From positions 1 through 61,374 of the forward strand of contig JAZBOU010000125.1 of the NCBI GenBank assembly GCA_036351275.1: a stretch of 61,374 nucleotides of DNA, read 5' to 3'. Below, one piece after another: positions 16,813-34,564 of the stretch (positions within the stretch are counted from its first letter, which is position 1; every line of letters begins with the position of its first letter). The translations under genes were made by a program, and so were the position numbers. The notes below the pieces were generated by a model. It saw nothing but the letters and a program-made list of their open reading frames with translations, had not been told where the DNA came from and made no database searches. The stretch comes from Bacteroidales bacterium (lineage in GTDB: Bacteria; Bacteroidota; Bacteroidia; Bacteroidales; B18-G4).

Positions 16813-17035
16813 GTGCTCTTAATGAACGTTTCCTTACCGCCTTCGCCAAGGCTATTGCGGCTAAAAGGACTGCAAAAATACATACAAATTTCTATTCTGC
16901 AAAAAATATAATAGATTTTTGAAAAATATTATTATTCAGTGTATGTATATCATGCCCTGCAGGGATGCTTACACTTTTCCCGGTACTTGCAAACGCTACA
17001 AGATTTCATGCCAAATCGTTACATCGTCCGATCGC

Positions 17036-18655: not shown

Positions 18656-18656
18656 G

Positions 18657-20590: not shown

Positions 20591-23125
20591 TTAACGGCCC
20601 GTATATAAAAGCTTCTTGCTTAAGGATTGCATCCCGTTTCCGGTCACCAGCAGGTATAGGCCTGCCGGGCATATCTCGCCCTGCTCGTTTTCTCCGTCCC
20701 ACCTGAATATTTGTCCTATTTTTATTTCCTGCCTGATGGCCAGTATCCTGACCAGCTTACCATTCATGTTGTAGATCTTGCAGCTGCCTGAGTTCAGGTT
20801 TTTTTCAAACCTGATGGAAATACTTTCCGAAAAAGGATTCGGGTAAGTGGAAACATGATCGTCCTGCAAATAAGTTTCATCCAACCCAAGGTCGCCGGCT
20901 GAAAATAACAGTGTTCGTCGGCTCCGGCAATGGTCGTCATCTTCTGCACTGAAGGTCAGTGGCAGGGACTGGTAATAATCAGAAGGCGTTCCCGTCAGTA
21001 AGCCTTCAGGGCTGAGCTGAATGTCATCGGGCAGGGGCGAGATGGCGATCCTGACGGCGCTTTGATCCTGGATCACTTCATTTTCGGCAAGGGAAGGAAT
21101 GAAATAGTTCTGCTCATCGCCCTTTGATACTCCGCACGACCACAGGGTTTTGTACCCATCAAAGCCTTTTCCAAAGATAAATTCCACATGTCCATCGGGG
21201 TAGAGGGTGAGGCCGAATTCCACATCTTGTTCGAAGGCGGGATCTGCGATATTTCCTTTCCACACTATGCTGGCCATTGCTGATGCCTGGTCCACCCAAA
21301 TGCGATGGCCGGAATCAGGATCTATAACAAGGTATTTAGCCAGGAGAGGTGCAATGCATTTTGTGTTCCGGATGAGCAGTTCGCTGTCGCGGATGTAAGG
21401 CCAGGGATAGTTTGTATTCTCGAACATGACCAGGCCCCTGGGATGGACATATATCGTATCATAGTGTTCGCCATAAAATGGGAAGCTGAATGCAAGGCTG
21501 ACGGGAATATTTCCGTAATCGTTGTTTTCGGCTTCAATAGTGGTTCCGGTATAGCTGAGTGCCGACTGGAACTGTTCTTCTGCGCAGGCATGCAACAGTG
21601 TCCATTGTACGGGCGCTGTTGCGCCGCTGCTTTCCAGCTGGAAAGAATAGGGCTCACCGACAACGGCCACCGGCAGATCAGTGGTAGTGATAAGCATCAC
21701 TTCCGGATCATTTGAAATAATGAGCGAGGCAGATGTTGTGCTGTTGTTGAGAATGTCCATCGTTGTGTGCTCCCACGAAGATTCGATGGGGTAGAGCTGG
21801 GAGTAATCGATCACGGAGAAGTATTCGATCCGGCCGCTGCCGCTTCCTTCCGGATCACGCTCATCGACCATAAGGAAGAATTTTTTCGGCGGAAGGCTCA
21901 GGTTTCCTCCCAGCAGTGGTGTGATGTCAAGTCCGAATTCTATGGTTTTATTTTCCGCCGGACTCCAGCCACCCTGCATATACTGCATCCCGCCCTGGAA
22001 GTTGAAAACGGGGAAGCTGATCGTATAATCGGGTTCTTCTGCATTTTCACCAGAGGCAACGCCCAGCCGTATCCTGAGCATGCCCCTGCGTTCATGTGTT
22101 ATCCTGATCTTCGCCGCCAGGCGTGGATGCTCCAGGCTTTTTACATCAAGAATATGAACGGCATTGTTCCATATGCCTCCTTCGTAAAGTTCATCAGCCA
22201 GTGTTTTGTACATCATGTAGCACCTGCCGCTGTCGCCGAAGTTAATGCCCCCGATCCAGCCATCGGCAAATACCAGTCCGCCGATCTCCCAGTCGCGCAT
22301 ATCCACGAAGCCGTCATCGTTAAGGTCGATGGTATTGGTATATTTTCCATCAGCGTTATAATCATAACGGATAGAGTCATTATACCCGGTTATGGTCATG
22401 GCATGCGAGGGATTGCCTGCCCAGTAGGTGATCACTTTTTTGCCTGCCTCAGGCGTACCTTGGGGTAAGGTCTTGGTATTCCAGGGGGAGTTGGCATAAA
22501 AGGAGGCCACTCCTCCTGTTTCGGACCCGTCGAGGTGGTTGTGCAGCCAGTGCTTCAACTGCAGGAGGCCTTCTTCTGTATCTGTTTTTATCTGGTATAC
22601 ATCCCTTATGCGGTTGCTCATGGCACCCAAATAGTTGTAATAGCCGTCCATCCATCGGCTTTCACCTCCTGCAGCCATGCCACCGTAAGTACTTACGCTG
22701 GGGCATCCGAGTGTTTTCAGGATCTCGAAGCTGTGAAAATAGCTTGCCCCGTACCATCCATAGCCGCCATTCATAAAATTATAAGTGAAGTGCGGCGGGT
22801 ACTGGTTCTCCGGTACATTGGCAGGCAGGTCCCTGAGCCGGTTGATCTCATACGTAAAATTATACGCGATCCCGCTTACCTGACCGCATTCGTTGCTTAC
22901 CTGTTCATAAATTGGCCTGTAATATTTTAGCCTGGAATTATCGACCGCAGACGGAAGCTCATTGCTTTTCAGCACAGGCATAGCCTTCAGTTCAGGCAGT
23001 TTAGCCAGCATGAGCGAATCATACGGGGTCAGCCCCGGAGCCTGTTCCGGAAATGAACCTTGTGCAAACAGGCTTGTAAAGCCCGCAAGGCCCAGAAGTA
23101 AAAGAAAGGTGGTTTTCCTCATCAT
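20591..23125 (-). CDS. Secreted papain-like (C1-type) cysteine peptidase with Ig-like middle domain and T9SS C-terminal domain
   Basis: It has a signal peptide, a putative catalytic Cys80 (NECGQVSG) and His241 (PSHAMTITGYND) followed by GDSGRCYMMY, and a GEPYSFQLESSGATAPVQW Ig-like motif. The C-terminal YPNPFSESISIRF..GLYLLVTG sequence matches the Por tail. Confidence 0.7.
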   Translation of the reverse strand: MMRKTTFLLLLGLAGFTSLFAQGSFPEQAPGLTPYDSLMLAKLPELKAMPVLKSNELPSAVDNSRLKYYRPIYEQVSNECGQVSGIAYNFTYEINRLRDLPANVPENQYPPHFTYNFMNGGYGWYGASYFHSFEILKTLGCPSVSTYGGMAAGGESRWMDGYYNYLGAMSNRIRDVYQIKTDTEEGLLQLKHWLHNHLDGSETGGVASFYANSPWNTKTLPQGTPEAGKKVITYWAGNPSHAMTITGYNDSIRYDYNADGKYTNTIDLNDDGFVDMRDWEIGGLVFADGWIGGINFGDSGRCYMMYKTLADELYEGGIWNNAVHILDVKSLEHPRLAAKIRITHERRGMLRIRLGVASGENAEEPDYTISFPVFNFQGGMQYMQGGWSPAENKTIEFGLDITPLLGGNLSLPPKKFFLMVDERDPEGSGSGRIEYFSVIDYSQLYPIESSWEHTTMDILNNSTTSASLIISNDPEVMLITTTDLPVAVVGEPYSFQLESSGATAPVQWTLLHACAEEQFQSALSYTGTTIEAENNDYGNIPVSLAFSFPFYGEHYDTIYVHPRGLVMFENTNYPWPYIRDSELLIRNTKCIAPLLAKYLVIDPDSGHRIWVDQASAMASIVWKGNIADPAFEQDVEFGLTLYPDGHVEFIFGKGFDGYKTLWSCGVSKGDEQNYFIPSLAENEVIQDQSAVRIAISPLPDDIQLSPEGLLTGTPSDYYQSLPLTFSAEDDDHCRSRRTLLFSAGDLGLDETYLQDDHVSTYPNPFSESISIRFEKNLNSGSCKIYNMNGKLVRILAIRQEIKIGQIFRWDGENEQGEICPAGLYLLVTGNGMQSLSKKLLYTGR

Positions 23126-23128
23126 GTC

Positions 23129-26100
23129 CTAATCATGCCTGATCACTTTTTTTACCACCCTGGCTCCATTGTATTCAAAGATAATGAAAAACATGCCTTC
23201 CCCGACCGTTTCACTTTCGGGATCCCAGCTAAAGTTATGTTTCCCGGCGGAAAGCATGATCCCTTCGGCTATCCTATCGAGGGTCCTGCCCCGGAGGTCG
23301 GCCACTTTAATGCTTACCTCTGTCTCTTTGCTCAGATCGAAACTTATGTTCGTTCCTTCAGTGAATGGATTGGGGTAAACATCGATCTCCATGCCCGGTT
23401 CCAAGGTTTCTTCTTGCCCGAGGTAGGTGTCAACAAGGAGGTGGACGGGTATGATGGACTCATGCTGGAAATTATCCCTGATGACAAGGTTGCAGTAATA
23501 GTCCCCGTCATCCAGGCCCCCGGTATTGAATGTTACCAGGATATCCTGCTGGCCTGACGGAGGTACGTTCCCTTCGTACATATCGCAACTGATCCAGGGT
23601 ACAATGCTGCCCAGGTTATCCAGTGTTATGCTTCCCTCTATCACATGGGGTTCGTTCCCGTACAGGTCTCCTGTGATGACATATTCCAGCACGGCATCGT
23701 CGCTGTATCCGGCTTCAACCATTCCATTGATGTTGGCATGGGCATATTCCCCTCCTTTAATGGCACCCCATCCGCTTCCGTCTTCAAAGTGCCAGTTCAT
23801 GCTTGCCCCGTTTCCAAAGGAGCCTGTGAACATCAGGTCGCCATTGCTTCCGCCGACAAAGTTATTGGTACCCTGTGCTACTATTCCAACGGGCAACTGA
23901 ATGATCAGGTCGGTGATCCATTCATCGTCCTCACTGGCATTATAGAGCGTAAATCCCCATGTGAACTCCTCCCCTGAAAAGAACGAATTCTCATCACATT
24001 CAAGATAGGAACCTTCAATACTCCTGTTTCCTGATGCACCGTCGTTTACAGAGGTGATGATCAAACTGAAATCCAGATCCCCTTCAAAATCATTGCTGAT
24101 CACGAAGGTGTCTGTATCTTGCTCACCGGGTTTCATTGCCTTATCAATTTCATTGTGCGAAAATGCCAGGTGGGGATTGATATCGATACTTCCAGGGAAG
24201 CTTATATAGTCGATAAAGGCGGCATCAAGCCCCTCGCTTATGGCCCCATCCTTGGTATATTTCCATTCAAGCCTGTGGTACCCGGTGCTCAGGGGGAAGG
24301 AAACCATTTCCCAGCCAAGGATGCTGTCCCAGCGCGCCTGTTCAACGCCGTCGATATGAAAAGAGAGATAGTCGCTGTTATCGTTGGCATCGTCCTGGCA
24401 GCTCACCCTGCGGTAAAAGCTCAGGTCTCCTGCTTCAATAACGTCGATATCAAGGATCATTACAGATTGGCTTTCGTGTGAGATCGATCCTGAGCGTGCA
24501 CCAAAGTCGCCTTCCCATGGATTGTTATCTTCGATGGCCCAGTTTCGGCTGCCTTTGAATCCCCAGCTGAAGAGATTGAAATCGCCGGTTTCAAAATCCT
24601 CCAGTGTCAGCCCAATCCGCTGCTGGAATGGGAGGCTGGTCTGAAATCCCATGTTTCCGCTGATGTCGAGCAGGAAATCAACGGTATGCCCTATGGTGGT
24701 AGCCGGGTCTACACTTACATTATATACCAGCCATTCGCTGCTGTCGGGGCTGAGCAGCGGAAGCATCTGCCCGGCATTGTTGATGGTTATGAGAGGATCT
24801 GCAGTACTGAGCAAACACTCCAGCATGGATCCCCTGCTGCCTCCTCCATTATAAATCTGTACAAGCATATCTGCTGTTTCCCCGGGATCGAGCCGGCCGT
24901 TCTGTCCGTCGTCGATCAGCACATCCGTGAGCTGCAGATCGGGAGCAAAGGCGGTATAAGCCAGGGTACTTTCCCAGGTTTCTTTCGTTGATCCCGTGAT
25001 CGTTGTAGCCAATTCAAAGGTGTGGTTATCGGGAATATCGGATGCTACCTGGAACCTGAAGGCATTCTCAAGGTAAATAGGAACCCCTACCGGCATATTT
25101 CCAATATACTGGCTGTCGTCGATAATGTTAATATACGGGTCCTGGGTACTGATGTACATATTTGCACCGGTAACCGTAGTGTTTTCCAGGTTGGTCAGCT
25201 CAACGCTGAGGTTAGCCAGCTCACCGTATTCGATCACCCCGTCTCCGCCTGACACGATCGAATCCACGATCTGTATGCCTGAAGTAGAGAATAGAAGCGT
25301 TCTAATATCGTACACAAAATTGTTATCGGTCAGCTTGAACGTCATGGTTTCCCCGTTCACGGGCTGGTTGACCACCCCGCTTAGCAGACCGCTTTCGGAT
25401 ATGCTGAGGCCGTCAGGGTAGTCGTACATTTCATAGGCATAGCATTTGTTTGGCTGTGGCACGGCATCGGGATAGAAAGAGGAGAACTGCATGTCATGTT
25501 CGTTGCCGTCGTTCAGGCCGGCAACCCATTTTGTGGCTTCTTCGATCACAATATCGCCATAGAGGTATTCGATCGTACCGTCGGGGAACAGCCTTACAGC
25601 GAAGTTCAGGTCGGTGCCGCCGGGATTGCCATCGATGGATGCATTCCACCGAAAAGTGGCCTGCGTTTCATCTCCTTCATACCATATCCCGTCGTTATCG
25701 GAAGAATAAAGCCTGATGTCATGGCACATAAAAGGAGAAATATTCCTTGTGATCCTGAACATCACCATGTCGTCGCCAAAATACGGGTAGGGGAAAAGCT
25801 GCTCATCAAACATCAGGTATCCGTCAACATGCACTGTCACAGCAGAATATGTTGAATCGTAATACGGGAAGTCGAAATCGAGTTGCCGTGTTACAAACCC
25901 GCTGTTGCTGGAGTTGGGATACAACTGTGTCTGGTTGAAAGTGGGGAACGTCTGGCTTGAGTTATTTTCATCGTAGTGTTTAAGCAGCCGGAATTCATAA
26001 GGTTCCGTGCCACCACTGGCGGTAAGTTGTACCGAATAGGGTTGGCCGATATTTGCCGCCGGCAAGGCCGAATTTGCAATCTGAACACGGTCAAAATCAA

Positions 26101-27523
26101 AGCTGGCCAGCAGGCTCATTCTGGTAAGGTTGTTATCATTGATGGGCACGTCGGTTTGAGGGCAAACGTGTTCTACGGGGCTTCCTCCTGTATAATCCAT
26201 GACGGAAAAGCTGTTGATCTCCCCGTACCCGGTATGGGTGGGATCATATTCATATACCTGCAGGAAGAACTTCACATCCTGTTGGAGGTTGATATGGCTT
26301 AAGAGGGGAGAAATATCGAGGCCGAATTCAAGTGTCCTGTTGTCGGGGTTGCTCCAGCCGCCCTGCATGTATTGTCCGCCCCCCTGGTAATTCAAAATGG
26401 GGAATTCCATCGCATAGTCAGGAACTGTAGCATTCACGTTGTTTGAAACGCCGGCAATTACTTTGAGCTTGTCGCGCTTGATATGTGTAAGGGTCACCTT
26501 CATGGTAGCCTGGGGCTCGCATGTCTCTTTTACATCGAGTACGTAAACGCAATGGTTCCAGATGCCGCCTTCCCCGAGATTATCAGCTACTGTTTTGTAC
26601 ATCATATATGCATAGCCCTGATCGCCCCAGTTGGGTACGCCACCGTAGCTCTGTACCATTTTAAACCCGCCGATCTCCCAGTCTTTCATGTTTACAACGC
26701 CGTCGTTATTGATATCAATGTCGTTGGTATACTGGCCATCGTTGTTGTAGTCCCAGCGGATGGAGTCATTGTAGCCGACGATGGTCTGGGCATGGTTGGC
26801 ACTACCGCCAAAATATGTGAGTACGTATTTTCCCTCTTCCGGTGTACCGGCAGGCAGGGTATTGCTGGCACTCATATACTGGGAATAAAAGCTGCCGACC
26901 CCGCCGACAGGAGCACCTTCCAGGTGATCGTTGATCCAGTGTTTAAAGGTTTCAAGCCCTTCGGGCGTTCCGATCTGTATCTGGAAGGCTTTATTGATCC
27001 TGTTACCCATCCCATTATAATACTCATCATAGCCTGATATCCACCTGGATTCTCCTCCTGAATAGGTGGTGCCGCCATAATCAGCTATATTCATGTTACC
27101 GCAGTGCCGCAATACCTCAAAGCTATGGAGGAAACTCACGCCATAATATCCATATCCCTCGTTCATCCAGTTCCAGGTAAAATGAGTGGGGTACATGTTC
27201 TCATTGACATTGGCGGGAATATCGCGTGCCCGGTCTATCTCGTATGTGAAATTATAAGCAATACCGGCTGCCTGCCCGCAGCTGTACATATGCTGCTGAA
27301 ATACCTCTCTCATATATGGCTGGACGGAGTTGTCGACAATGGCAGGAAGGTCTTTGCTCTTATATTCAGCCGGCATTTTGAGCTCCGGCACTTTTTTCAA
27401 AGCTTCCATCTCGGTGTCGCTCAATGGCTGCAGTTCAAAATTGCCGGCCTGGTTGCGGGCAAGCTGGGCAAACAGTGTGAGGCTGACAAAACAAACAGGG
27501 ATAAACAGGGACAATGCTTTCAT
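23129..27523 (-). CDS. Large secreted papain-like cysteine peptidase paralog (1464 aa) with extra Ig-like and lectin/MAM-like domains and T9SS C-terminal domain
   Basis: The N-terminal ~330 aa are collinear with the 844-aa neighbor (SCGQAAGIAYNFTYE, ANHAQTIVGYND, NWGDQGYAYMMYKT). It also has a GQPYSVQLTASGGTEPYEF motif and an LEDFETGDF..WEGDFGARSG jelly-roll-like domain. The C-terminal VYPNPFTEGTNISF..MFFIIFEY sequence is a T9SS tail. Confidence 0.7.
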   Translation of the reverse strand: MKALSLFIPVCFVSLTLFAQLARNQAGNFELQPLSDTEMEALKKVPELKMPAEYKSKDLPAIVDNSVQPYMREVFQQHMYSCGQAAGIAYNFTYEIDRARDIPANVNENMYPTHFTWNWMNEGYGYYGVSFLHSFEVLRHCGNMNIADYGGTTYSGGESRWISGYDEYYNGMGNRINKAFQIQIGTPEGLETFKHWINDHLEGAPVGGVGSFYSQYMSASNTLPAGTPEEGKYVLTYFGGSANHAQTIVGYNDSIRWDYNNDGQYTNDIDINNDGVVNMKDWEIGGFKMVQSYGGVPNWGDQGYAYMMYKTVADNLGEGGIWNHCVYVLDVKETCEPQATMKVTLTHIKRDKLKVIAGVSNNVNATVPDYAMEFPILNYQGGGQYMQGGWSNPDNRTLEFGLDISPLLSHINLQQDVKFFLQVYEYDPTHTGYGEINSFSVMDYTGGSPVEHVCPQTDVPINDNNLTRMSLLASFDFDRVQIANSALPAANIGQPYSVQLTASGGTEPYEFRLLKHYDENNSSQTFPTFNQTQLYPNSSNSGFVTRQLDFDFPYYDSTYSAVTVHVDGYLMFDEQLFPYPYFGDDMVMFRITRNISPFMCHDIRLYSSDNDGIWYEGDETQATFRWNASIDGNPGGTDLNFAVRLFPDGTIEYLYGDIVIEEATKWVAGLNDGNEHDMQFSSFYPDAVPQPNKCYAYEMYDYPDGLSISESGLLSGVVNQPVNGETMTFKLTDNNFVYDIRTLLFSTSGIQIVDSIVSGGDGVIEYGELANLSVELTNLENTTVTGANMYISTQDPYINIIDDSQYIGNMPVGVPIYLENAFRFQVASDIPDNHTFELATTITGSTKETWESTLAYTAFAPDLQLTDVLIDDGQNGRLDPGETADMLVQIYNGGGSRGSMLECLLSTADPLITINNAGQMLPLLSPDSSEWLVYNVSVDPATTIGHTVDFLLDISGNMGFQTSLPFQQRIGLTLEDFETGDFNLFSWGFKGSRNWAIEDNNPWEGDFGARSGSISHESQSVMILDIDVIEAGDLSFYRRVSCQDDANDNSDYLSFHIDGVEQARWDSILGWEMVSFPLSTGYHRLEWKYTKDGAISEGLDAAFIDYISFPGSIDINPHLAFSHNEIDKAMKPGEQDTDTFVISNDFEGDLDFSLIITSVNDGASGNRSIEGSYLECDENSFFSGEEFTWGFTLYNASEDDEWITDLIIQLPVGIVAQGTNNFVGGSNGDLMFTGSFGNGASMNWHFEDGSGWGAIKGGEYAHANINGMVEAGYSDDAVLEYVITGDLYGNEPHVIEGSITLDNLGSIVPWISCDMYEGNVPPSGQQDILVTFNTGGLDDGDYYCNLVIRDNFQHESIIPVHLLVDTYLGQEETLEPGMEIDVYPNPFTEGTNISFDLSKETEVSIKVADLRGRTLDRIAEGIMLSAGKHNFSWDPESETVGEGMFFIIFEYNGARVVKKVIRHD

Positions 27524-27692: not shown

Positions 27693-30368
27693 TTAATAAA
27701 AAACGATCTCCACTCCCGGTTTTTTCTCCTGGAATTTTTCCACCTTTTTCTCTTTCAGATTGGTGTTATAACATTTAAGGAGTTTCAGTTTGGTCAACCC
27801 TTCCAGCGGATCCAGGGATTTAACCCTGGTGTTGTATATCGAGAGTTCCTCAAGATTGCCAAGGAAAGCCAGCTCATCGATCTTTTTGATGTCGGTGCCG
27901 GCCATATCCAGTACCCTCAGCCTGGTCAGCCCTGTAAGGGCTTCGAGATCATCCACCCGTGTGTTCCTGAATTCCAGTTCAAGCAGGTTTGTAAGGCCTG
28001 AAATAGCTTCGAGGCTGGACACGGGATTGTTGGAGATATTCAGTTTTTCTATTGTGCCCATCGTTGATATGGGGCTCAGATCGGCGATCTGTGTGTCGTT
28101 CATCTTCAACGACTGCAGCAGGTAGAGCTTAAGCAAGGGGGTGAGCCCCGTGATGGCATTATTTTGCGAGATATCGATCTCCGTTAGGTCGGCGATTCGC
28201 TGCAGATCTTCCGCCCCGGGCTCACCTTTGATGCCCGAAGCCTTACTGAAGACCTCCCTCCATGGAGCAGGCAGCGCCGTCCACCATGCCTGCAATTCTG
28301 AAGTCTGGTACACAATGGTGGTTTCCGGATTGTCTTTCCTGAAAGCGATGACCTCTCCCATATCCACAGCTGTTTCTTCAGCATATATCAGGTCGATATT
28401 GGATTTGCCAAATACATTGATCTTAGCGGTTGCAGTTCCATTGATCTTAAGTACCCGCATTCCTTTGATCCTCGAGATGCATTCAATATTGCTTATTGCC
28501 GTGTTGCTGAGGTCAAGGTAATCGAGCTTGGTCAGATCGTGCAGGGGTTCGCAGTTACTCACCGGTGTGTAGGAGCAATCAAGGTACTGGAGATCGATCA
28601 GTTCTGACAGAGGCCAGAGGTTATCGATACTGGTGTGGCTGCAGTCGAGTTTATTCAGGTGCACCAGATTCTTTACAGGCAACAAACTGCTGATGCCGTG
28701 CTTACCGGAAACATCGATCTCGGTGATCTTTATCGCCCGGTGCAGCTGTTCTTTGGTCGGTTCCGGGTCAAGCTGAACCTGCTCCCGGAAAATATCCCGC
28801 CATGCTTCAGGCATCTTGTACCACCAGTTCGTAAGTGCAACCGACTCATAAATGACCATCACATTCGTATTGGCAGCCATGAATTTATTCGCTTTACCGG
28901 CTGTGATCCCGGTATTATCGCAATAGATGCTTTCAAGCTTCTCAAGTCCGCTGAGTGGGTTCAGGTCGCTTACATTGGTGGTGTCGAGGTATATGGTCTG
29001 GAGCTTTTCCAGTCCCGCGAGCGGCTGAAGGTTTTCTACCGCGGTATTGCTCATGTAAAGCCTCTCGAGGTTTTCCAATCCCCTGATCGGATCCAGGTCG
29101 CGAACATAGGTTCCTGACAGATTTAGTATCCTCAGTGATGTCAGCTTTTCCAGTGGTGAGAGATCGGCGATCATGGTGTTGTTCATCCTCAAGTCCTCGA
29201 GATGCTTCATTTCCCTTAACATCTCAATACTGTCTACCGTGGTATTGCTAATGTCGAGCTGTTCAAGATTTCTCAGATTCGAAAGTAATTTTGCATCCTG
29301 TATGATGGTGGAGCTGATATCCAGGCTTTTCAGGGAGATGGAATACTGGAGTGGGGCAATGCTTTTCACAGGGGTGCCGGAACAATCGAGCGACCTGATG
29401 TTAATGAGGTTTCTGAGGGGATGCAGGTCATCGACCAGGGTATTTGCGCAGCTTACCTTTTTTAATTCACCCATGCTTGAAAGCGGGGTCAGACTGTTAA
29501 TGTTCAGGTTATTGCTGATATCGATCTCCGTTTCGGATGACAGCCGTTGCAGCATACGGTAGGCTACATTTTTTTGCAGGATCAGGGTATCGGTGAGCAA
29601 TGCCTCCAGGGTATCTGTTTCTTCAATAAAAAGCGTATCGCCACCATAAACAAGGAAAGTGTCGACAGGCACCTCGACCATGCCAAAATGTTGCGCGACA
29701 GCAATGGAGTCGTTGATCTCAATAACATTCGACAGGCGTACCGTATCGGTGATGATGGCTTCGTGCCCGAGCACTTCCCTCCAGGCTGTGGGCATATTGT
29801 TCCACCAGGCAAAAAGTTCTTCCCGCTCATCGATCTTGGTAGTATAGATGGATACGATCCTCAGGTCCTGTGCTTCTTCATCGAAATTGACCTCGATAAA
29901 TCGTTCACGGTTTGACGAGACAGTGTCGTCGGTGATGGTCGTCGCATTAAGGGTACGCGTCAGGGTAACCAGGAAGTAAAGTTCCTGCTCGGCAGTGTAA
30001 CGTTGTTCTATGCTGCTTACATTGAGGCTGAAAACAGCCTGTTTAAAAAAGAAGTCGATGTCTTTAAGGTAAGCCTGAACATCCTTGTTTATGAGGGTTT
30101 CCCTGTTGTCGTCGAGATCATCTTCGATCTGTACTTCCGCATCACGGAATATCTTTGCATAACTCTGGTTGATGATAACATCCTTGTCTCTTACCGGTGT
30201 AGCGGGATCACCCAGGGTATTGAAGGAATACTCGAGAAAGTCGACGAGATTCTGAACATTGACTTTATATTCCGTGATCTTTTCAGGATTGATATCCTGT
30301 TGGGCCGATATGCCAGCCGGGAAGAGGAATAACAGCAAGAAGGCAACAAAGAAGTAAATTTTACTCAT
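27693..30368 (-). CDS. Secreted leucine-rich-repeat protein (three cassettes of 22-aa internalin-like LRRs)
   Basis: I prefer the start at MSKIYFFVAFLLLFLFPAGISAQ (signal peptide), 13 codons inside the track ORF. About 25 repeats fit LxxLxxLxxLdxSxTxVxDLxPL. There is no T9SS tail. Confidence 0.8.
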   Translation of the reverse strand: MSKIYFFVAFLLLFLFPAGISAQQDINPEKITEYKVNVQNLVDFLEYSFNTLGDPATPVRDKDVIINQSYAKIFRDAEVQIEDDLDDNRETLINKDVQAYLKDIDFFFKQAVFSLNVSSIEQRYTAEQELYFLVTLTRTLNATTITDDTVSSNRERFIEVNFDEEAQDLRIVSIYTTKIDEREELFAWWNNMPTAWREVLGHEAIITDTVRLSNVIEINDSIAVAQHFGMVEVPVDTFLVYGGDTLFIEETDTLEALLTDTLILQKNVAYRMLQRLSSETEIDISNNLNINSLTPLSSMGELKKVSCANTLVDDLHPLRNLINIRSLDCSGTPVKSIAPLQYSISLKSLDISSTIIQDAKLLSNLRNLEQLDISNTTVDSIEMLREMKHLEDLRMNNTMIADLSPLEKLTSLRILNLSGTYVRDLDPIRGLENLERLYMSNTAVENLQPLAGLEKLQTIYLDTTNVSDLNPLSGLEKLESIYCDNTGITAGKANKFMAANTNVMVIYESVALTNWWYKMPEAWRDIFREQVQLDPEPTKEQLHRAIKITEIDVSGKHGISSLLPVKNLVHLNKLDCSHTSIDNLWPLSELIDLQYLDCSYTPVSNCEPLHDLTKLDYLDLSNTAISNIECISRIKGMRVLKINGTATAKINVFGKSNIDLIYAEETAVDMGEVIAFRKDNPETTIVYQTSELQAWWTALPAPWREVFSKASGIKGEPGAEDLQRIADLTEIDISQNNAITGLTPLLKLYLLQSLKMNDTQIADLSPISTMGTIEKLNISNNPVSSLEAISGLTNLLELEFRNTRVDDLEALTGLTRLRVLDMAGTDIKKIDELAFLGNLEELSIYNTRVKSLDPLEGLTKLKLLKCYNTNLKEKKVEKFQEKKPGVEIVFY

Positions 30369-31206
30369 GGTATATGTAGTTGAGCAGGATATCCCTGTTC
30401 TTGTCATCTATCTCCAGGAGGTTGGAGATCAGCCATCCGCTATTATACCCGTCGCGATTGAAGTACGTAAGTTCAAAATACCATCCGTCTATCTGGAAGA
30501 AATGAAATTTCAGGTCCTTTACTGTTTTGAACTCCAGCCTCCCTTCCTTGATCTCATAAAAGAACAAAGATAAGTAATCGGGCGTAAAGTCCCGCCGGGC
30601 AAAATATTCCAGGCTGTCGTTCTCATTGAACACCCTGAAAATATTCATAAATCCGACTTCATGACTCAGGGGATGGAGGAACTTGCTGTCGTTGAAGTGG
30701 CTGTTATCGGGTTTTTTCAGTACATCATGAAAAGGTTTGAAATATACCCCGTCGATCACCCATTTTGAGCCGACTTCTTCTTCCTGCAACGCCATTAAAA
30801 GGGTTAATTCTTCCTCTACGCCACGGTACCGGAATATTGTTTTCAGCTCACAGATCCAGGCGCCGCCATGGAATTCGAGGTAGATGGGGTCATTCTTGTC
30901 AAGCACCAGTTCAGTGAACTTTTCTTTGGCTGCTTCCGAGAGTATAGTGTTCTCAAGGTTGAAGAGGTTAGGGAGGTACTTTTTCCGCAATTTATAGGTG
31001 CGAAAGTCTTTGTCTTTGGCATACAGCCGCTCTCCATGCTTATCCTCTTCCCCGTTAAACCTCCGGAAGAACTGGTTCACCTGCTTTGTTTCAGCATAAA
31101 GCTCCGACTCGTCATACTGAAAACTCCCAATATCCTGGGTTTCCGCCTGCCACGGCAATAATACCAACAATAGCATTATTGCCGGGATAAAAATGCGTTT
31201 TAGCAT
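30361..31206 (-). CDS. Hypothetical secreted protein (281 aa)
   Basis: It has a signal peptide (AIMLLLVLLPWQAETQ). Its stop overlaps the LRR gene start by 8 nt (ATGAGTAA). I recognise no motif. Confidence 0.6.
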   Translation of the reverse strand: MLKRIFIPAIMLLLVLLPWQAETQDIGSFQYDESELYAETKQVNQFFRRFNGEEDKHGERLYAKDKDFRTYKLRKKYLPNLFNLENTILSEAAKEKFTELVLDKNDPIYLEFHGGAWICELKTIFRYRGVEEELTLLMALQEEEVGSKWVIDGVYFKPFHDVLKKPDNSHFNDSKFLHPLSHEVGFMNIFRVFNENDSLEYFARRDFTPDYLSLFFYEIKEGRLEFKTVKDLKFHFFQIDGWYFELTYFNRDGYNSGWLISNLLEIDDKNRDILLNYIYHE

Positions 31207-31212
31207 GGAAAA

Positions 31213-31788
31213 TTATTTAGTTGTTTCAACCACCCTGATGTCGCCGAGGAGTACGTCCCAGAAACCGATCAGTTTCCCCTGGATCTGGGTTTGCTTTCGT
31301 TCTACATATACCGTGATGTCTTTTTTTGTAACATCTTTGTATATAAGTCCATCGTCGGAGGTACCTTCAAAGCGCTGGAAAATGGTGATAACACCCACAT
31401 ACCTTCCGTCAGGTTGCAGTTCCAGATCACTGATATACTCTATGTTGAACCATTCGATCTTGACTTTGTCGTAGTTGAGCAGCATCAACCTTTCGAGGTA
31501 TTCCTTTATTCCGTAATAGGTCACCTCTTCGCGGTACAGGGATGAAACACCCATCTGTGCGTCTTCGACAAATAGTTCAAGGGTGCGGTCGATCACCCTC
31601 TTGGCTTCGGAAAAAGGCGTTTGCTTGTTTCCGATGATGCTGATGTATTTTCCGAGGTCACGGATCTTTTCCATGGCCAGGCTGTCGATGGCCCTTTTCC
31701 TTTCAGGACTGATGTCGGTCTGTGCCTGAGCAGTATAGCTGAAAGCCATACCGGTCAGAAGTAATATTATCAGGCTAATTCTTTTCAT
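31213..31788 (-). CDS. Hypothetical secreted protein (191 aa)
   Basis: It has a signal peptide (LLLLTGMAFSYTAQAQ). The body resembles the N-terminal module of the LRR protein. Confidence 0.6.
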   Translation of the reverse strand: MKRISLIILLLTGMAFSYTAQAQTDISPERKRAIDSLAMEKIRDLGKYISIIGNKQTPFSEAKRVIDRTLELFVEDAQMGVSSLYREEVTYYGIKEYLERLMLLNYDKVKIEWFNIEYISDLELQPDGRYVGVITIFQRFEGTSDDGLIYKDVTKKDITVYVERKQTQIQGKLIGFWDVLLGDIRVVETTK

Positions 31789-31791
31789 GGT

Positions 31792-32424
31792 TTAATAATC
31801 CTTTTTGATAAGTTCAAGTAATTTGATCTTCCCGTTATCGTTGTATTCGATATTATCGATCTCGTTCAGGTTCTTTTTCTGGTCTTTCAGGTATTCAAGG
31901 TACTTCTTCGCCGTGGTGGGCCTGTCATAGTCTTTCAGGTCGCCATCCTGGCTGATGATGATAAGTACCGGTGTATTAGGGCTTTCGAAGAGGCTGAGTG
32001 CTTCATTGATCTTTTTGTTCGCATTTTCAATGCTTGACGCTCCGGCCACCAGTGCGAAGTAATCGGCCAGCGACAAGCTCATGGCCTCGTCATTTTTCTT
32101 GTTCTCCTCCTCCCATTTTCTTCGCATTTCTTCTTCCTGATCTGCAATGACCTGCTCGGCTTCACGTATGAGCGCAAGTATTTCGGGTTCGTTCAGGTTC
32201 ATGTCCTTCACCCTTTGCAGTTTGCTTTTTTTGTCATTCAGGCTCATGTTGTCGTCGTTAATGATCGACAGCAGGTCCTGCCTGGCTGTTTCAACTTTTT
32301 TTGCGTACTCAGCAGCAGCCTGTTCGCGTGCAAGCTTCTTCTTGCTTTTACATCCCGACATACCGGATCCCAAACTGACGGCGATCATCATCAGAAATGT
32401 AATTTTGAGGATTTGTTTGATCAT
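31792..32424 (-). CDS. Hypothetical lipoprotein (210 aa) with coiled-coil segment
   Basis: It has a lipobox-like LGSGMSGC, a K/E-rich helical region, and a C-terminal module with a YLEYL motif. Confidence 0.6.
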   Translation of the reverse strand: MIKQILKITFLMMIAVSLGSGMSGCKSKKKLAREQAAAEYAKKVETARQDLLSIINDDNMSLNDKKSKLQRVKDMNLNEPEILALIREAEQVIADQEEEMRRKWEEENKKNDEAMSLSLADYFALVAGASSIENANKKINEALSLFESPNTPVLIIISQDGDLKDYDRPTTAKKYLEYLKDQKKNLNEIDNIEYNDNGKIKLLELIKKDY

Positions 32425-32483: not shown

Positions 32484-32491
32484 CAAAACTA
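32484..32491 (-). promoter_or_regulatory. -7 promoter box TAgtTTTG (minus strand)
   Basis: CAAAacTA on the plus strand, 59 nt upstream of the ATG at 32424. This is the candidate promoter of the four-gene operon. Confidence 0.4.
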
Positions 32492-32659: not shown

Positions 32660-33487
32660 ATGAAAAAAATCATAGAGTCAAAAGATTACCTTCAGCAAAA
32701 AGGTGTGAGTTCACCGGAGATAGGCATAATCCTGGGTACGGGACTTGGGAAACTGGTTGACCGGATAAACATTGAGCTAAAAATTCCCTACGAGGATATT
32801 CCGTATTTCCCGGTATCGACCGTGGAATTTCATAAAGGTGAGCTTATTTACGGCAGCCTTTCAGGAAAGAAAGTGCTTGCCATGCACGGGCGTTTCCACT
32901 ATTACGAAGGATACAGCCTTCAGGAAGTGGTATTTCCCGTAAGGGTGATGAAGATGCTGGGGATCAAAGCACTTCTGGTTTCCAATGCCTGCGGTACCAT
33001 TAACATGAATATACCCAAGGGCAGCCTCATGATGTTAAACGATCATATTAACATGCTTGGCGATAACCCGCTGATAGGCCCCAACTATGATGAACTCGGT
33101 CCGCGCTTCCCGGATATGAGCGAGCCTTACAGCCGGGAGATCAATGAACTCTTGAGGCGGGCAGCGGAAGAGAGAGGCATTATGCTTCATGAAGGTGTTT
33201 ATGCTGCCTTTCCGGGACCCATGCTGGAAACCAGGGCGGAATACCGCTTCCTTCAACGCATCGGGGCTGATGTGGTGGGGATGTCGACCGTGCCTGAAGC
33301 AATTGCGGCACGTCATATGGGACTTCCATGTTCTGCAATTTCTGTGATCACCGACGAATGCGACCCGGATAACCTTGCCGTTGCGGATATCAAAGATATA
33401 CTGGCAACCGCCGCCCTTGCGGAAGAAGACCTCATCGTTTTGTTTGAGGAAGTTGTTGCCAAGCTGACAGTAGGCAGAAGGAAGTAG
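32660..33487 (+). CDS. Purine nucleoside phosphorylase (PunA/PNP-I, inosine-guanosine type)
   Basis: It has GIILGTGLG, HGRFHYYEG, SNACG and GADVVGMSTVPE blocks of the trimeric PNP/MTAP family. The last codons lie in a heptamer repeat. Confidence 0.88.
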   Translation: MKKIIESKDYLQQKGVSSPEIGIILGTGLGKLVDRINIELKIPYEDIPYFPVSTVEFHKGELIYGSLSGKKVLAMHGRFHYYEGYSLQEVVFPVRVMKMLGIKALLVSNACGTINMNIPKGSLMMLNDHINMLGDNPLIGPNYDELGPRFPDMSEPYSREINELLRRAAEERGIMLHEGVYAAFPGPMLETRAEYRFLQRIGADVVGMSTVPEAIAARHMGLPCSAISVITDECDPDNLAVADIKDILATAALAEEDLIVLFEEVVAKLTVGRRK

Positions 33488-33499
33488 GCAGTAGGCAGT
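33470..33499. repeat. Heptamer array GTAGGCA / GAAGGAA / GTAGGCA x2
   Basis: Direct reading. It spans the PNP stop codon. Confidence 0.8.
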
Positions 33500-33587
33500 C
33501 CCGAAAAAATGCAAATCTTTGATATGCTCTTTTTTCGAGGATGCATGGCATCCGAGAAACCTCCTTCACAACAAATTGCCCTCATAA

Positions 33588-34550
33588 TTAATGAAGTTTC
33601 AACACCTGCCCCGTCTTCGCCTCCGTACCCTCCTCCATCTTATTATGCTTGTAAAATGAGCCCAGTCGTATTCCGTAAAGCTGAGCAATAGAATGCATGC
33701 TTTCACCTGGCCTGGCGGTGTGTGTGCCGGCCTCCTTGTTTTTTTTGTTTTTCTTCTCGATGTAGATCATTTCACCCTCTTTCAGGGTGTGTTTCTTGTC
33801 CAGTTCATTGTACTTCGGAAGCTGCCAGGAATAGATCTCAAAATCGGCGGCGATCTCAGAAAAACTATCGCCGGAACCGGCAAAGATGAATTTAGCGCCA
33901 TTGTTTACGTAGACTTTTCGCCCGGTTTCCCATATTTCGACAAGTTCAAAATCAGATGAAGAGGGTGGGGGCAGGGAGTTTGCCGATACTGAATGGTTTG
34001 GAATGCTGTTTTGTTCTGAACGTGCCAGGTGGACAGGAGTAACCCCCTTATCGAACTCGTAGAGGTGGTTTTCTTCGATGATCTTGATGAGCAGATGCGG
34101 GTAACGTGGATTCGTGGCATAGCCGGCCTTTTTCAAACCACGGGCCCAGCCTTTGTAATCTGTGGTCTTAAGGTTGAACAGGTCCGCATAGCGGTCGCGG
34201 GTGGTCAGGAAGATCGAATGGTCACGGTATGACTCATCCGGGTTCTTGTATCTGCGGAAGCATTCGTCCCTGGCATCATCATCCATGTGGTAGGTCTTGC
34301 CGTTCCATCCCTTGTGGCATTTGATCCCAAAGTGGTTGTTGGCCTTGCGCGCAAGTTCGCTGTTCCCGCTGCCTGATTCAAGAATGCCCTGGGCCAGGGT
34401 GATGGAAGCGGGGATGCCATACTCTTCCATCTTCTCGATGGCAACATCCTTATAGGTCATGATGTATTCATCGACTGTGATCTTTTGCTGGGCAACAGCT
34501 GAAGCCAGAAAAAACCAGGATAATACCAGAATGCTTAAGCCTTTTTTCAT
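33588..34550 (-). CDS. Secreted peptidoglycan hydrolase: N-acetylglucosaminidase (GH73-like) with two LysM domains
   Basis: It has a signal peptide from the ATG at 34550 (MKKGLSILVLSWFFLASAVA), the glucosaminidase block ITLAQGILESGSGNSELARKANNHFGIKC, and LysM-like segments (FSEIAADFEIYSWQLPKYN and MHSIAQLYGIRLGSFYKHN). Confidence 0.8.
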   Translation of the reverse strand: MKKGLSILVLSWFFLASAVAQQKITVDEYIMTYKDVAIEKMEEYGIPASITLAQGILESGSGNSELARKANNHFGIKCHKGWNGKTYHMDDDARDECFRRYKNPDESYRDHSIFLTTRDRYADLFNLKTTDYKGWARGLKKAGYATNPRYPHLLIKIIEENHLYEFDKGVTPVHLARSEQNSIPNHSVSANSLPPPSSSDFELVEIWETGRKVYVNNGAKFIFAGSGDSFSEIAADFEIYSWQLPKYNELDKKHTLKEGEMIYIEKKNKKNKEAGTHTARPGESMHSIAQLYGIRLGSFYKHNKMEEGTEAKTGQVLKLH

Positions 34551-34556
34551 GCGTTG

Positions 34557-34564
34557 CAAAAATA
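34557..34564 (-). promoter_or_regulatory. -7 promoter box TAttTTTG (minus strand), only 6 nt before the ATG
   Basis: CAAAaaTA on the plus strand, immediately upstream of the ATG at 34550. Confidence 0.45.

Follow-up and report, generated by a model that had tools for sequence, protein, structure and literature searches.

A stretch of 61,374 nucleotides from a Bacteroidales contig (the window) carries on its minus strand four tightly packed genes, g1 to g4, that appear to make up a system undescribed so far. We tentatively infer that their products assemble into a periplasm-facing hetero-oligomeric LRR scaffold or sensor platform tethered by a lipoprotein, a reading that falls somewhat short of being probable in its assembly and function. 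The genes and the elements that link them are as follows:

31792..32424, minus strand: g1, ORF for a 210-aa lipoprotein
31213..31788, minus strand: g2, ORF for a 191-aa exported protein with a predicted NTF2-like fold
30361..31206, minus strand: g3, ORF for a 281-aa exported alpha+beta protein
27693..30368, minus strand: g4, ORF for an 891-aa exported protein with a predicted NTF2-like N-terminal domain and three LRR cassettes
30361..30368, minus strand: g3/g4 overlap ATGAGTAA, with the g4 start codon within the 3' end of g3
32484..32491, minus strand: TAGTTTTG, a Bacteroidota-type -7 promoter box, read directly, 59 nt upstream of the g1 ATG (consensus, TAnnTTTG)

The junctions, read directly, bear out the packing described in the initial annotation: a 3-nt gap between g1 and g2 (TAA-acc-ATG), a 6-nt gap between g2 and g3 (TAA-ttttcc-ATG), and the 8-nt overlap, from whose ATG g4 runs for 891 aa (904 aa if an in-frame ATG upstream, at 30407, is used). 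Taken at the sequence level, the overlap implies translational coupling of g3 and g4. The two genes overlap in 58 of 68 orthologous loci, in 35 of the 68 by 8 nt starting with ATGA (mostly ATGAnTAA or ATGAnTAG), and the median gap is 6 nt for both g1-g2 and g2-g3. The promoter box proposed upstream of g1 is likewise present, and in 37 of 72 orthologous loci the 150 nt preceding g1 contain a TAnnTTTG motif, compared with 6% of random 150-nt windows; among the unit's genes, this enrichment is seen upstream of g1 only. TAnnTTTG is reported in the literature as a Bacteroidetes promoter element (e.g., PMC6847099). The genes g1 to g4 would form one transcription unit, with products made in coupled amounts and then exported across the inner membrane.

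The order g1-g2-g3-g4 is retained in 77 to 80 of 80 sampled species-level loci from Bacteroidales and Cytophagales, with g1 in 77 and a g4 orthologue in 77 to 78 of them, and this fixed co-occurrence spans two orders of Bacteroidota. Among the 80 loci, neither a fifth conserved gene nor conserved flanks were found, flanking genes being common to only 7 to 10 close relatives, and the recurrence of the same arrangement without shared flanks is far beyond chance. In a scan of 185,579 species representatives, g3 was found in at least 561 species; the sampled carriers all belong to Bacteroidales or Cytophagales and are for the most part free-living or environmental. The two large neighbors in the window (23129-27523 and 20591-23125), initially annotated as giant secreted peptidases, do carry T9SS C-terminal sorting domains (Por_Secre_tail match) but have no Pfam peptidase match, and their identity as peptidases was not confirmed. 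They are incidental to the unit and are not conserved with g1 to g4.

Profile searches of g1, g2, and g3 gave no confident match in Pfam, NCBIfam, or PDB sequences, and g4 matches only LRR models in Pfam and NCBIfam (Pfam LRR_4, E 1.2e-52), its PDB sequence matches being internalin A/B, a Chlorobium Roco LRR, and SDS22. No catalytic family was matched by any member of the unit in Pfam or NCBIfam. These results agree with the initial annotation, which had recognized no catalytic or T9SS-tail motif and had put the operon forward as its best candidate for an undescribed system.

Export signals and lipoprotein sorting were judged by eye only. On this basis all four products carry the export signals first attributed to them: the hydrophobic N terminus of g1 ends in LGSGMSG-C, and the n-h-c regions of g2, g3, and g4, which are conserved in orthologues, end in AQAQ/T, AETQ/D, and SAQ/Q, respectively. 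In g1, the signal peptide and lipobox Cys24 are followed by K-S-K-K-K, a charged helical spacer, and a C-terminal domain, and a ...G-C-K-S/A-K/Q-K-K pattern is present in its orthologues. The resulting sequence, C-K-S-K-K-K, lacks the acidic lipoprotein export signal, C-X-K-(D/E)2-X or SDDDD (PMC5080379). Pfam and NCBIfam scans of g1 to g4 detected no T9SS C-terminal domain, though the neighboring ORFs match Por_Secre_tail. Because g1 lacks the acidic signal and all four lack a T9SS tail, a periplasm-facing location seems more likely than the cell surface; of the "cell-surface or periplasmic complex" originally suggested, the dedicated complex is supported and the periplasmic option is favored.

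Within the four products, we distinguish the following domains and motifs:

31804..32091, minus strand: C-terminal domain of g1 (residues ~112-207), a predicted short form of the g2-type NTF2-like domain (HHalign)
29829..30296, minus strand: N-terminal domain of g4 (residues ~25-180), a predicted g2 paralogue with the motif VQ.EDDL...R.....K.VQAYLKD.DFFF.
30658..30675, minus strand: HPLSHE motif of g3 (residues 178-183), marked by alignment conservation, inside the low-confidence loop 168-205
28839..29828, minus strand: LRR cassette A of g4 (residues 181-510), with a WWNNMPTAWR cap, nine 22-residue LRRs, and a C-cap
28299..28838, minus strand: LRR cassette B (residues 511-690), with a WWYKMPEAWR cap, LRRs, and a C-cap
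27696..28298, minus strand: LRR cassette C (residues 691-891), with a WWTALPAPWR cap, LRRs, and a C-cap ending ...PGVEIVFY

The most conserved member is g2, with 62 to 95% identity across Bacteroidales and Cytophagales and a mean column identity of 82% in its alignment (A2), which indicates very strong purifying selection. This conservation is far above that usual for sensor components and fits a housekeeping structural role better. There are 4411 g2 homologues at 90% clustering; among the 120 matches listed, none is named and none has a Pfam domain. The AlphaFold2 model of g2 (pLDDT 83.6, pTM 0.73) points to an NTF2-like fold, with NTF2-like, CaMKII-hub, and SnoaL/PhzA-B proteins as the top Foldseek matches in the PDB (E 2e-4, TM 0.4-0.66). 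Ketosteroid-isomerase-like enzymes and designed ligand binders are also among the best matches, which share only 8 to 16% identity with g2. In A2 and across the wider superfamily, the conserved positions of the domain are mostly aromatic or hydrophobic core, and the polar residues kept across the wider superfamily are Q354, K372, D368, and T370 (A3 numbering). A single domain is predicted to be common to g2, the N terminus of g4, and, in part, the C terminus of g1. HHalign relates g2 to the g4 domain with 97.8% probability (E 1e-12, 137 columns; 94.4% and E 8.8e-8 in a control without bridging sequences) and to the g1 domain with 94.1% probability (E 1.2e-7, 67 columns; control, 92.9% and E 3.7e-7). 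Domains of the g4 type also head TPR proteins (loci L088, L122, and L134) and, in L086, a coiled-coil protein whose C-terminal region is hydrophobic, and the g1 type forms the C terminus of a trypsin-like peptidase in loci L086 and L125.

For g3, 2957 homologues were found, none of the 120 matches listed having a Pfam domain or a name that indicates function. Its AlphaFold2 model (pLDDT 72.9) had no PDB fold match in Foldseek at E <= 0.001 (best, 0.017), its profile had 0 matches to PDB sequences, and no conserved set of catalytic-looking residues was observed. In the g3 alignment (A1), H178, P179, S181, H182, and E183 are invariant and L180 is variable; in the wider superfamily, P179 is conserved at 90% or more and S181 and H182 at 75 to 90%. 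The surrounding residues 168-205 have pLDDT values below 50, and this low-confidence loop suggests a putative partner-binding segment. The triple-cassette description of g4 proved accurate, with three units starting at residues 188, 515, and 695, each comprising a WW..(M/L)P..WR cap, 22-residue LRRs, and a C-cap. Conservation is family-wide for the WW caps and only moderate for the residues on the LRR surface, and an insert in cassette A (residues ~201-280) varies by lineage.

Fusion genes join the members in pairs: a g1::g2 fusion (P0298) lies directly before the g4 orthologue in two independent assemblies, and g3 and g4 form one fused ORF in locus L071. Together with the conserved start/stop overlaps and the domain common to g1, g2, and g4, these fusions support the original view of a dedicated complex rather than a set of unrelated hypotheticals. 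One lineage has a non-lipidated g1::g2 fusion and no g3 near the other genes, so g3 and the lipid anchor are not strictly obligatory.

In 71 of 80 variant loci, a g2-like gene is followed by a g3-like gene, and a large ORF (mostly ~880-985 aa) comes next in 53 of the 55 variant loci with room for it. Of 10 such large ORFs sampled from sister loci, 9 encode TPR proteins and 1 an LRR protein. The LRR is a swappable part, and what is conserved as the core is g2 and g3 together with a solenoid protein (TPR in most relatives). Kinases of the Ser/Thr type, with a single predicted TM segment and just a small C-terminal domain on the extracytoplasmic side, are added in about 14 of 35 long sister loci; in the majority of these, PP2C phosphatases bearing a TM segment at the C terminus are present as well. 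Trypsin-like peptidase fusions, a nearby ECF sigma gene (Pfam match), and anti-sigma-like genes (recognized by eye) are further features of sister loci. Neither the window nor the sequence up to 8 kb from any of the 80 core loci contains a kinase, phosphatase, sigma factor, or peptidase gene, and a signaling output for the LRR subtype would for this reason be an extrapolation from relatives only.

In the complex that we propose, the lipid anchor and charged spacer of g1 would hold the assembly at a membrane, and the paralogous NTF2-like modules of g1 (C terminus), g2, and g4 (N terminus) would pair with each other. NTF2-fold domains commonly pair and often serve as homo- or hetero-oligomerization modules. 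The fourth subunit, g3, would dock probably via the HPLSHE loop, unstructured yet conserved, and/or its invariant C terminus, completing one periplasm-facing hetero-oligomer. The concave surfaces of the three g4 cassettes may bind one or more envelope protein partners, and the whole could act as a binding, adaptor, or sensor platform, with the output partner of the LRR subtype encoded outside the operon.

A constitutive structural or biogenesis scaffold without signaling, i.e., a housekeeping envelope component such as a tether or organizer of an outer-membrane or peptidoglycan machine, is a possible but on the whole unlikely alternative. Its role would compare with that of the periplasmic TPR lipoprotein scaffolds NlpI, LpoA, BamD, and PorW, and it suits the core-protein-like conservation of g2, the lipid anchor and long charged spacer of g1, the noncatalytic look of the proteins, and an operon that stands alone, with no regulator nearby, in 80 of 80 loci. 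However, in relatives there are links to kinases, phosphatases, and anti-sigma modules, the unit has no domain linking it to peptidoglycan, LPS, or a beta-barrel, and a distribution of at least 561 of 185,579 species representatives, with all sampled hits in Bacteroidales and Cytophagales, does not appear phylum-universal. It is improbable that g2 and its paralogous domains are instead a small-molecule- or lipid-binding module or enzyme, working through an NTF2 cone pocket as SnoaL, ketosteroid isomerase, or lipid carriers do, with the LRR protein as an accessory. The enzymes and designed binders among the Foldseek matches and the polar residues conserved inside the domain would agree with such a pocket, but the likeness is at fold level only, g2 has no sequence-family match, and the conserved positions are mostly core; the use of this domain at the head of solenoid proteins, and its truncation in g1, speak rather for an interaction module.

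Slimmer still is the chance of an internalin- or BspA-like adhesin, with g4 displayed outside to bind host or prey surfaces and g1 to g3 as export or anchoring helpers. The 22-residue internalin/SDS22-type LRRs and the adjoining T9SS-sorted proteins would suit it; against this, g1 to g4 lack a T9SS C-terminal domain, g1 lacks the acidic surface-export signal, the unit encodes no outer-membrane barrel, and the T9SS genes are not conserved with it. Carriers are mostly free-living and environmental, the NCBIfam internalin score is 180 against a cut-off of 1600 bits, and the strong purifying selection is unlike that of surface adhesins. That the operon is an antiphage defense or conflict system is very hard to credit. 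In PADLOC, g1 weakly matches the RT_UG20 (DRT) profile (E 2.5e-6, 24.8 bits), and some relatives have trypsin-like and kinase genes, but the match falls on the lysine/glutamate-rich part of g1, which has no RT domain, and g2 to g4 have no PADLOC matches. Moreover, a reverse-transcriptase system working in the cytoplasm is incompatible with the export signals on all four products, the sequences show strong conservation instead of diversification, and no mobile-element context was seen at the loci.

The proposed LRR platform resembles several known systems in part. The g2 model, a helix-capped curved beta-sheet cone, is akin to the NTF2-like superfamily (CaMKII association/hub, SnoaL, PhzA/B, and NTF2/NXT1; Foldseek probability 1.0, E about 2e-4), whose use as an oligomerization module is the role proposed for the g1, g2, and g4 domains. 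Unlike these proteins, g2 has no sequence-level membership in Pfam or NCBIfam NTF2-like families, reaches TM-scores of only 0.4-0.66, has an extra long N-terminal helix, and is exported, its gene sharing a fixed operon with those for g3 and a solenoid protein. In the NXF1(TAP)-NXT1(p15) mRNA export heterodimer, a large LRR and NTF2-like protein pairs with a small stand-alone NTF2-like partner. The likeness to the putative g4/g2 pairing is an architectural analogy only, since NXF1-NXT1 is eukaryotic, nuclear, and nonhomologous, places its LRR before the NTF2-like domain, where g4 has the reverse order, and has no equivalent of g3 or the lipoprotein.

Class 1 internalins and SDS22-type proteins share with g4 the 22-residue LRRs and the LxxLxxLxLxxNxIxDIxxL pattern, with InlA, InlB, the Chlorobium Roco LRR, and PPP1R7 as its best PDB sequence matches. 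However, g4 scores far below internalin family cut-offs, lacks the internalin N-cap/IR domain and an LPXTG or GW anchor, and carries, behind an NTF2-like head, three distinct cassettes that are individually capped by WW..P..WR. Extracytoplasmic sensor partners of Hanks-type receptor kinases and anti-sigma factors, e.g., PASTA ectodomains or RseB with RseA/DegS, are resembled by the sister g2/g3/TPR triads, whose genes sit between those for Ser/Thr kinases and for PP2C phosphatases in some loci and next to ECF/anti-sigma genes plus a trypsin-like peptidase gene in others. The g2/g3/solenoid triads have no homology to PASTA or RseB, and the LRR subtype of the window has no linked kinase, phosphatase, sigma factor, or peptidase. 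Finally, the TPR lipoproteins NlpI, LpoA, BamD, and PorW/SprE are noncatalytic, lipid-anchored repeat proteins that organize other envelope proteins, and most relatives of the four-gene system use TPR rather than LRR. They have no sequence relationship to it and no counterpart of the g2/g3 pair; here, in contrast, anchor and solenoid are divided between two polypeptides (g1 and g4), presumably joined via NTF2-like modules.

The operon studied here comprises four minus-strand genes, g1 to g4, followed downstream by two large open reading frames (ORFs).

Genes of the operon and downstream neighbors
31792-32424, minus strand: g1 ORF, lipoprotein, 210 aa
31213-31788, minus strand: g2 ORF, small exported protein, 191 aa
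30361-31206, minus strand: g3 ORF, small exported protein, 281 aa
27693-30368, minus strand: g4 ORF, large leucine-rich repeat (LRR) protein, 891 aa counted from the ATG within the overlap
23129-27523, minus strand: large ORF downstream of the operon, 1464 aa, T9SS C-terminal sorting domain
20591-23125, minus strand: large ORF downstream of the operon, 844 aa, T9SS C-terminal sorting domain

The g1/g2 junction is a 3-nt gap (TAA acc ATG), the g2/g3 junction a 6-nt gap (TAA ttttcc ATG), and g3 and g4 share an 8-nt start/stop overlap (ATGAGTAA, 30361-30368), all of which read in the sequence exactly as claimed by the initial annotation. The promoter box that it placed upstream of the operon is likewise present (TAGTTTTG, 32484-32491), lies 59 nt upstream of the g1 ATG, and fits the Bacteroidota TAnnTTTG -7 element. 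Across orthologous loci, the g3/g4 overlap is present in 58 of 68 cases, 35 of these showing the 8-nt version starting with ATGA, and the g1-g2 and g2-g3 spacings each have a median of 6 nt. Of 72 orthologous loci, 37 have a TAnnTTTG box in the 150 nt preceding g1, versus 6% of random windows. We observe that g1-g4 form one promoter-proximal, translationally coupled unit. The export signals proposed for all four products are visible by eye, and the same features appear in the orthologues.

In a GTDB scan with a single genome for each species and the g3 family as query, we found g3 relatives encoded in at least 561 species and examined the best 80 loci, which belong to Bacteroidales (including Lentimicrobium and Draconibacterium) and Cytophagales (Catalinimonas, Rapidithrix, Ohtaekwangia, Chryseolinea, Cyclobacteriaceae, Imperialibacter, and others). 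Among these core loci, tblastn detects g3 in 80/80, g2 in 79/80, and g4 in 78/80, with gene order and strand constant in essentially every locus with enough sequence, while ORF clustering recovers g1 in 77/80. That the four genes co-occur elsewhere, which the initial annotation had left to a neighborhood survey, is thus borne out in fixed order across both orders in the best 80 loci. All-against-all clustering of the flanks adds no further conserved gene; the family ranking next occurs in 15 of 80 loci. The conserved order, the coupling, the box upstream of g1, and the absence of a fifth gene therefore delimit the unit as exactly g1-g4, with g1 first. Two loci labeled as an Omnitrophica WOR_2 MAG (L069) and a Roseobacteraceae MAG (L079) carry the operon, yet these labels probably reflect binning contamination; in the latter, no g4 is detectable in the 4.5 kb downstream of g3.

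The remaining genes of the window, including the T9SS-tailed neighbors and a purine nucleoside phosphorylase, are shared with only 7 to 10 close relatives. The two downstream ORFs had been described as giant secreted peptidases with their own promoter box. Their T9SS tails and the box (TAGCTTTG, 23 nt upstream of the 1464-aa ORF) hold, but Pfam, giving no peptidase domain in either the 1464-aa or the 844-aa protein, does not confirm the label of peptidases. By eye, the 1464-aa protein displays a papain-like pair (...SCGQAAG... / ...ANHAQTIVGY...). A functional link between these neighbors and the operon was rejected, as the adjacency is limited to 8 to 9 close relatives and is incidental. Furthermore, no match to the T9SS C-terminal sorting domain (Por_Secre_tail, TIGR04183) is found in g1-g4 at E ≤ 0.1, so we do not assign them the status of T9SS cargo, whereas the neighbors at 23129-27523 and 20591-23125 do match. 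Elsewhere in the window, an MBOAT O-acyltransferase (473 aa) adjoins an AlgX-like SGNH protein (539 aa) on the minus strand (17036-20078), an arrangement resembling the alginate AlgI/AlgX pair for polysaccharide O-acetylation. Upstream of the operon (32660-34559) lie a divergent purine nucleoside phosphorylase (PNP_UDP_1, 2.5e-55) and, after it, a peptidoglycan-hydrolyzing glucosaminidase that carries LysM domains and is exported; only close relatives have these two genes in common with the window.

The hydrophobic N terminus of g1 ends in LGSGMSG-C (residues 17-24), a lipobox as judged by eye, whose Cys is kept in at least 90% of 74 aligned g1 sequences. By eye, a signal peptide closed by this lipobox and its conserved Cys marks g1 as a bacterial lipoprotein. 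The Cys is followed by basic residues in g1 (C-K-S-K-K-K-L-A-R-E) and in its orthologues (C-K-S/A-K/Q-K-K). In Bacteroidota, the export signal of surface lipoproteins lies just after the lipidated Cys and reads C-X-K-(D/E)2-X, SDDDD, or SDDFE (PMC5080379). Such an acidic signal is absent from g1 when compared with this consensus, which derives from tested species and may differ outside them. Neither a Pfam/NCBIfam family, even at E 0.1, nor a sequence relative in PDB was found for g1 with single-sequence and profile searches. PADLOC matches g1 residues 43-187 to positions 241-390 of 511 of RT_UG20 (DRT; E 2.5e-6, 24.8 bits), probably through composition bias in a lysine/glutamate-rich region of the sequence; Pfam detects no RT domain in g1. 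As an exported protein without an RT domain and with a weak, partial match, g1 was rejected as a DRT/UG20 reverse-transcriptase defense protein.

The g2 family comprises 4411 clusters at 90% identity, the best 120 of which carry no Pfam domain and no name besides "hypothetical protein." Identity between orders reaches 62 to 95%, with a mean column identity of 82%, suggesting a fitness-relevant role in environmental Bacteroidales and Cytophagales. Like those of g3 and g4, the signal peptide of g2 is typical and ends in AQ or TQ (by eye; recurring in orthologues). In the AlphaFold2 model of g2 (pLDDT 83.6, pTM 0.73), long N-terminal helices pack against a curved antiparallel sheet, and the top 50 Foldseek matches in PDB are almost all NTF2-like (probability 0.99 to 1.0, E from 1.9e-4; TM relative to the target 0.21 to 0.66, mostly 0.4 to 0.66). 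These include NTF2-like proteins of unknown function, CaMKII hub domains, and SnoaL/PhzA-B enzymes. At the sequence level, g2 and 10 diverse relatives match none of the NTF2-like families in Pfam/NCBIfam (SnoaL, DUF4440, CaMKII_AD, and others), and the g2 profile finds nothing significant among PDB sequences. Judged from its predicted structure, g2 is thus a member of the NTF2-like superfamily at the level of fold only.

For g3, whose family comprises 2957 clusters at 90% identity, the best 120 clusters are equally devoid of Pfam domains and of names other than "hypothetical protein," and no Pfam/NCBIfam family at E 0.1 or PDB sequence relative was found by single-sequence or profile search. 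The AlphaFold2 model, of moderate confidence (pLDDT 72.9), shows two halves, each consisting of a helix and three strands, and Foldseek finds no significant match in PDB, the best being Med18/20 (E 0.017, TM 0.22 to 0.28). HHalign was negative both between the two halves and between these halves and g2, the N-terminal domain of g4 (g4N, residues ~25-180), or the C-terminal domain of g1 (g1C, residues ~112-207), and we rejected g3 both as a duplicated domain and as NTF2-related. An HPLSHE motif lies within a low-confidence loop (168-205), with five of its six residues invariant in the g3 family alignment. In the wider g3 superfamily, conservation is concentrated on aromatic residues, along with R49, N51, R74, Q238, R251, and N255, and no catalytic residue set is obvious among these positions.

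The triple-cassette architecture noted for the last gene is readily recognized: after an N-terminal domain of ~155 residues, g4 has three cassettes starting at residues 188, 515, and 695, each composed of a WW..(M/L)P..WR cap with a TEID(I/V)S strand, 22-residue LRRs, and a C-cap (..F....P...V.Y). Pfam LRR_4 matches in 11 stretches (E 1.2e-52, 175 bits versus a cut-off of 27) and LRR_8 with E 3.2e-14; these tandem LRRs above the gathering threshold, in a 22-residue register, identify g4 as an LRR protein. Only LRR models match in Pfam and NCBIfam, and PDB sequence matches are limited to the repeats of internalins, a Roco LRR, and SDS22. Class 1 internalins are defined by a whole-protein score above the curated cut-off, covering the N-cap, LRR, and inter-repeat Ig-like region. 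With 179.7 bits for internalin_A (cut-off 1600), 167.6 bits for internalin_H (cut-off 1050), and LRR stretches alone aligning, g4 was rejected as a member. By its repeat sequence, g4 can be classed as an LRR protein of the internalin/SDS22 type, yet not as an internalin. Searches with its N-terminal region returned only fragments of g4 orthologues and no alternative architectures.

When broad profiles combining core orthologues and distant relatives are compared by HHalign, g2 aligns with g4N (probability 97.8%, E 1e-12, 137 columns) and with g1C (94.1%, E 1.2e-7, 67 columns spanning the helical half and the first strands). Removal of seven bridging sequences still leaves 94.4% for g2-g4N and 92.9% for g2-g1C, while narrow profiles of close orthologues miss the paralogy (best probability 21%). 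These alignments indicate that three of the four proteins share one unnamed NTF2-like module. Neighboring members are also found fused in nature. A 469-aa protein, one of the long g2 relatives described below, is a g1::g2 fusion with an ordinary signal peptide and no lipobox Cys; it directly precedes a g4 orthologue (859 aa) in two independent assemblies (L081, 8001-12040; L082, 2114-6153), where g3 is absent from the surrounding 8 kb. A MAG of an uncultured Cytophagales member has g3 and g4 as a single 1063-aa ORF (L071, 8091-11282), which could be a real fusion or an assembly indel. One further locus (L144, 11585-14387) encodes two tandem proteins of ~470 aa with g4N-type heads, the one at 12996-14387 scoring with both the g2 and g4N profiles as a natural bridge between the domain families.

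Searched exhaustively by HMMER with the g2 profile, 1.84 billion representatives yield 1005 clusters at 50% identity, which place g2 in a superfamily with size classes of ~190 to 220 aa and of 350 to 580 aa, the latter carrying the g2-like domain C-terminally. Of 87 long forms, 65 contain a pair of small beta-rich domains, 12 another N-domain, 4 a Trypsin_2 peptidase, and 1 a Kazal inhibitor domain. A metagenome scan with a diverse g2-like alignment yielded 80 further loci, examined without taxonomy. All of these variant loci contain a g2-like gene, a g3-like gene lies directly next in 71/80 (most of the rest being truncated), and a large ORF, mostly of ~880 to 985 aa, follows g3 in 53 of the 55 loci with room. 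Sampling 10 of the large solenoid proteins gave nine TPR and one LRR, and a g4N head is detectable in 21. Defined as a g2-like gene with a g3-like gene directly after it and then a solenoid protein of ~800 to 985 aa, the triad is present in the window operon too (g2, g3, and g4 in order). This recurrence across loci therefore defines a conserved core of g2, g3, and a solenoid with a g2-like head; the subtype of the window is characterized by g1, an LRR-type solenoid, and a stand-alone setting. In two loci (L083, 8001-17281; L089), two solenoid sets stand in tandem. The first consists of g2-like and g3-like genes and an LRR protein bearing N-terminally three copies of the small beta-rich domain of long g2-like proteins; the second has two unassigned ORFs (460 to 490 aa; 280 aa) followed by a TPR protein, whose N terminus in L083 appears g4N-like by eye, while the g4N HMM gave no match.

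Approximately 14 of 35 long variant loci show an extended arrangement of Ser/Thr kinase, g2, g3, TPR protein (~900 to 960 aa), PP2C, and Ser/Thr kinase (among them L092, L097 [7202-18912], L105, L106, L108, L110, L112, L115, and L155). Both kinases are tandem-domain proteins, and those inspected have one or a few predicted transmembrane segments and a small C-terminal extracytoplasmic domain, which looks PEGA-like by eye; the linked PP2C phosphatases carry a C-terminal transmembrane segment. A BatD-like gene is located near the extended operon in 11 loci. This triad group, linked to kinases and PP2C, is defined in this analysis and corresponds to no published family. Other sister loci connect the same domains to different modules. 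In L086 (4228-9839), a trypsin-like peptidase with a g1C domain at its C terminus is followed by g2-like and g3-like genes and by a protein in which the g4N-type domain heads a coiled coil with a hydrophobic C-terminal region in place of the LRR; upstream, in divergent orientation, are genes for an ECF sigma factor and an anti-sigma-like protein. L084 (35-2015) encodes a trypsin::g2-like fusion; the gene before it specifies, by eye, an anti-sigma-like membrane protein whose periplasmic end is g1C-like. By tblastn, the window and the 8 kb around each of the 80 core loci contain neither kinase nor PP2C.

We propose that the four products meet in the periplasm, a placement based on the lack of an acidic export signal in g1 and of a T9SS tail in all four; a surface adhesin we regard as quite improbable. 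Assembly would proceed through pairing of the NTF2-like modules g1C, g2, and g4N, with g3 docking via its conserved disordered loop or its invariant C terminus and the three LRR cassettes of g4 offering binding surfaces. Our leading, still tentative reading is that this complex may serve as an adaptor or sensor platform, because homologous triads repeatedly lie between receptor kinases and phosphatases or beside anti-sigma/peptidase modules. The main rival is a constitutive structural or biogenesis scaffold, favored by how unusually conserved g2 is and by the lack of a linked regulator at core loci; we consider it possible, with a distinctly smaller probability. Small-molecule binding or catalysis by the NTF2 cone is unlikely: enzymes do occur among the structural matches of g2, but these are at the level of fold only, and g1-g4 show no catalytic-family signature. 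A defense system, suggested by PADLOC, is very improbable given that g1 is exported, lacks an RT domain, and scores weakly.

Beyond an adaptor or sensor platform encoded by the window operon, it is conceivable, though doubtful, that the g2/g3/solenoid triad represents a widespread and previously unrecognized extracytoplasmic receptor apparatus, presumably belonging to Bacteroidota, the metagenomic variant loci being without taxonomy. If so, an NTF2-like co-receptor pair (g2 and the solenoid head) would, together with g3, load ligands onto a solenoid of the LRR or TPR type or present them to it, and either single-pass Ser/Thr receptor kinases with PP2C or anti-sigma factors with site-1-type peptidases would then receive the signal. 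The apparatus would then be a bacterial analogue of systems pairing LRR receptors with small co-receptors (TLR4-MD-2, plant LRR receptor kinases), and the window operon its lipoprotein-anchored LRR version, with the output, kinase or other, encoded elsewhere in the genome.

The initial annotation had proposed a dedicated, undescribed envelope complex, to be refuted by profile matches to known families or by a lack of co-occurrence, and the proposal is supported on both counts: the genes co-occur in other genomes, and g1-g3 remain unmatched in Pfam, NCBIfam, and PDB sequences, with only the weak PADLOC match to g1. The Foldseek check it called for yields an NTF2-like fold for g2 and no significant PDB match for g3. 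In a full-text literature search, we found no description of the operon or its families, and a preprint on the Bacteroidetes BAM mentions no LRR, NTF2, or TPR component. We rate the system as categorically new since it lies outside every described family tested, its function being what we infer. Two families absent from Pfam/NCBIfam are defined here, the g2-type NTF2-like domain and the g3 family, as well as a recurring architecture rule in which g2 and g3 precede a solenoid, TPR or LRR, that has a g2-like domain at its head. Should the four proteins form the proposed complex, they would constitute a conserved envelope machine absent from the searched databases and papers, and the links of sister loci to kinases, PP2C, anti-sigma factors, and trypsin-like peptidases offer a testable lead on periplasmic sensing by these poorly studied receptor kinases. 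In functional terms, the system most resembles the TPR lipoprotein scaffolds of the periplasm and the proteins that partner receptor kinases or anti-sigma factors outside the cytoplasm, while no homology supports placing it in either group. For the proposed pairing of g4 with g2, a purely architectural analogy is found in the eukaryotic heterodimer NXF1-NXT1, which combines a large LRR and NTF2-like protein with a small NTF2-like partner.
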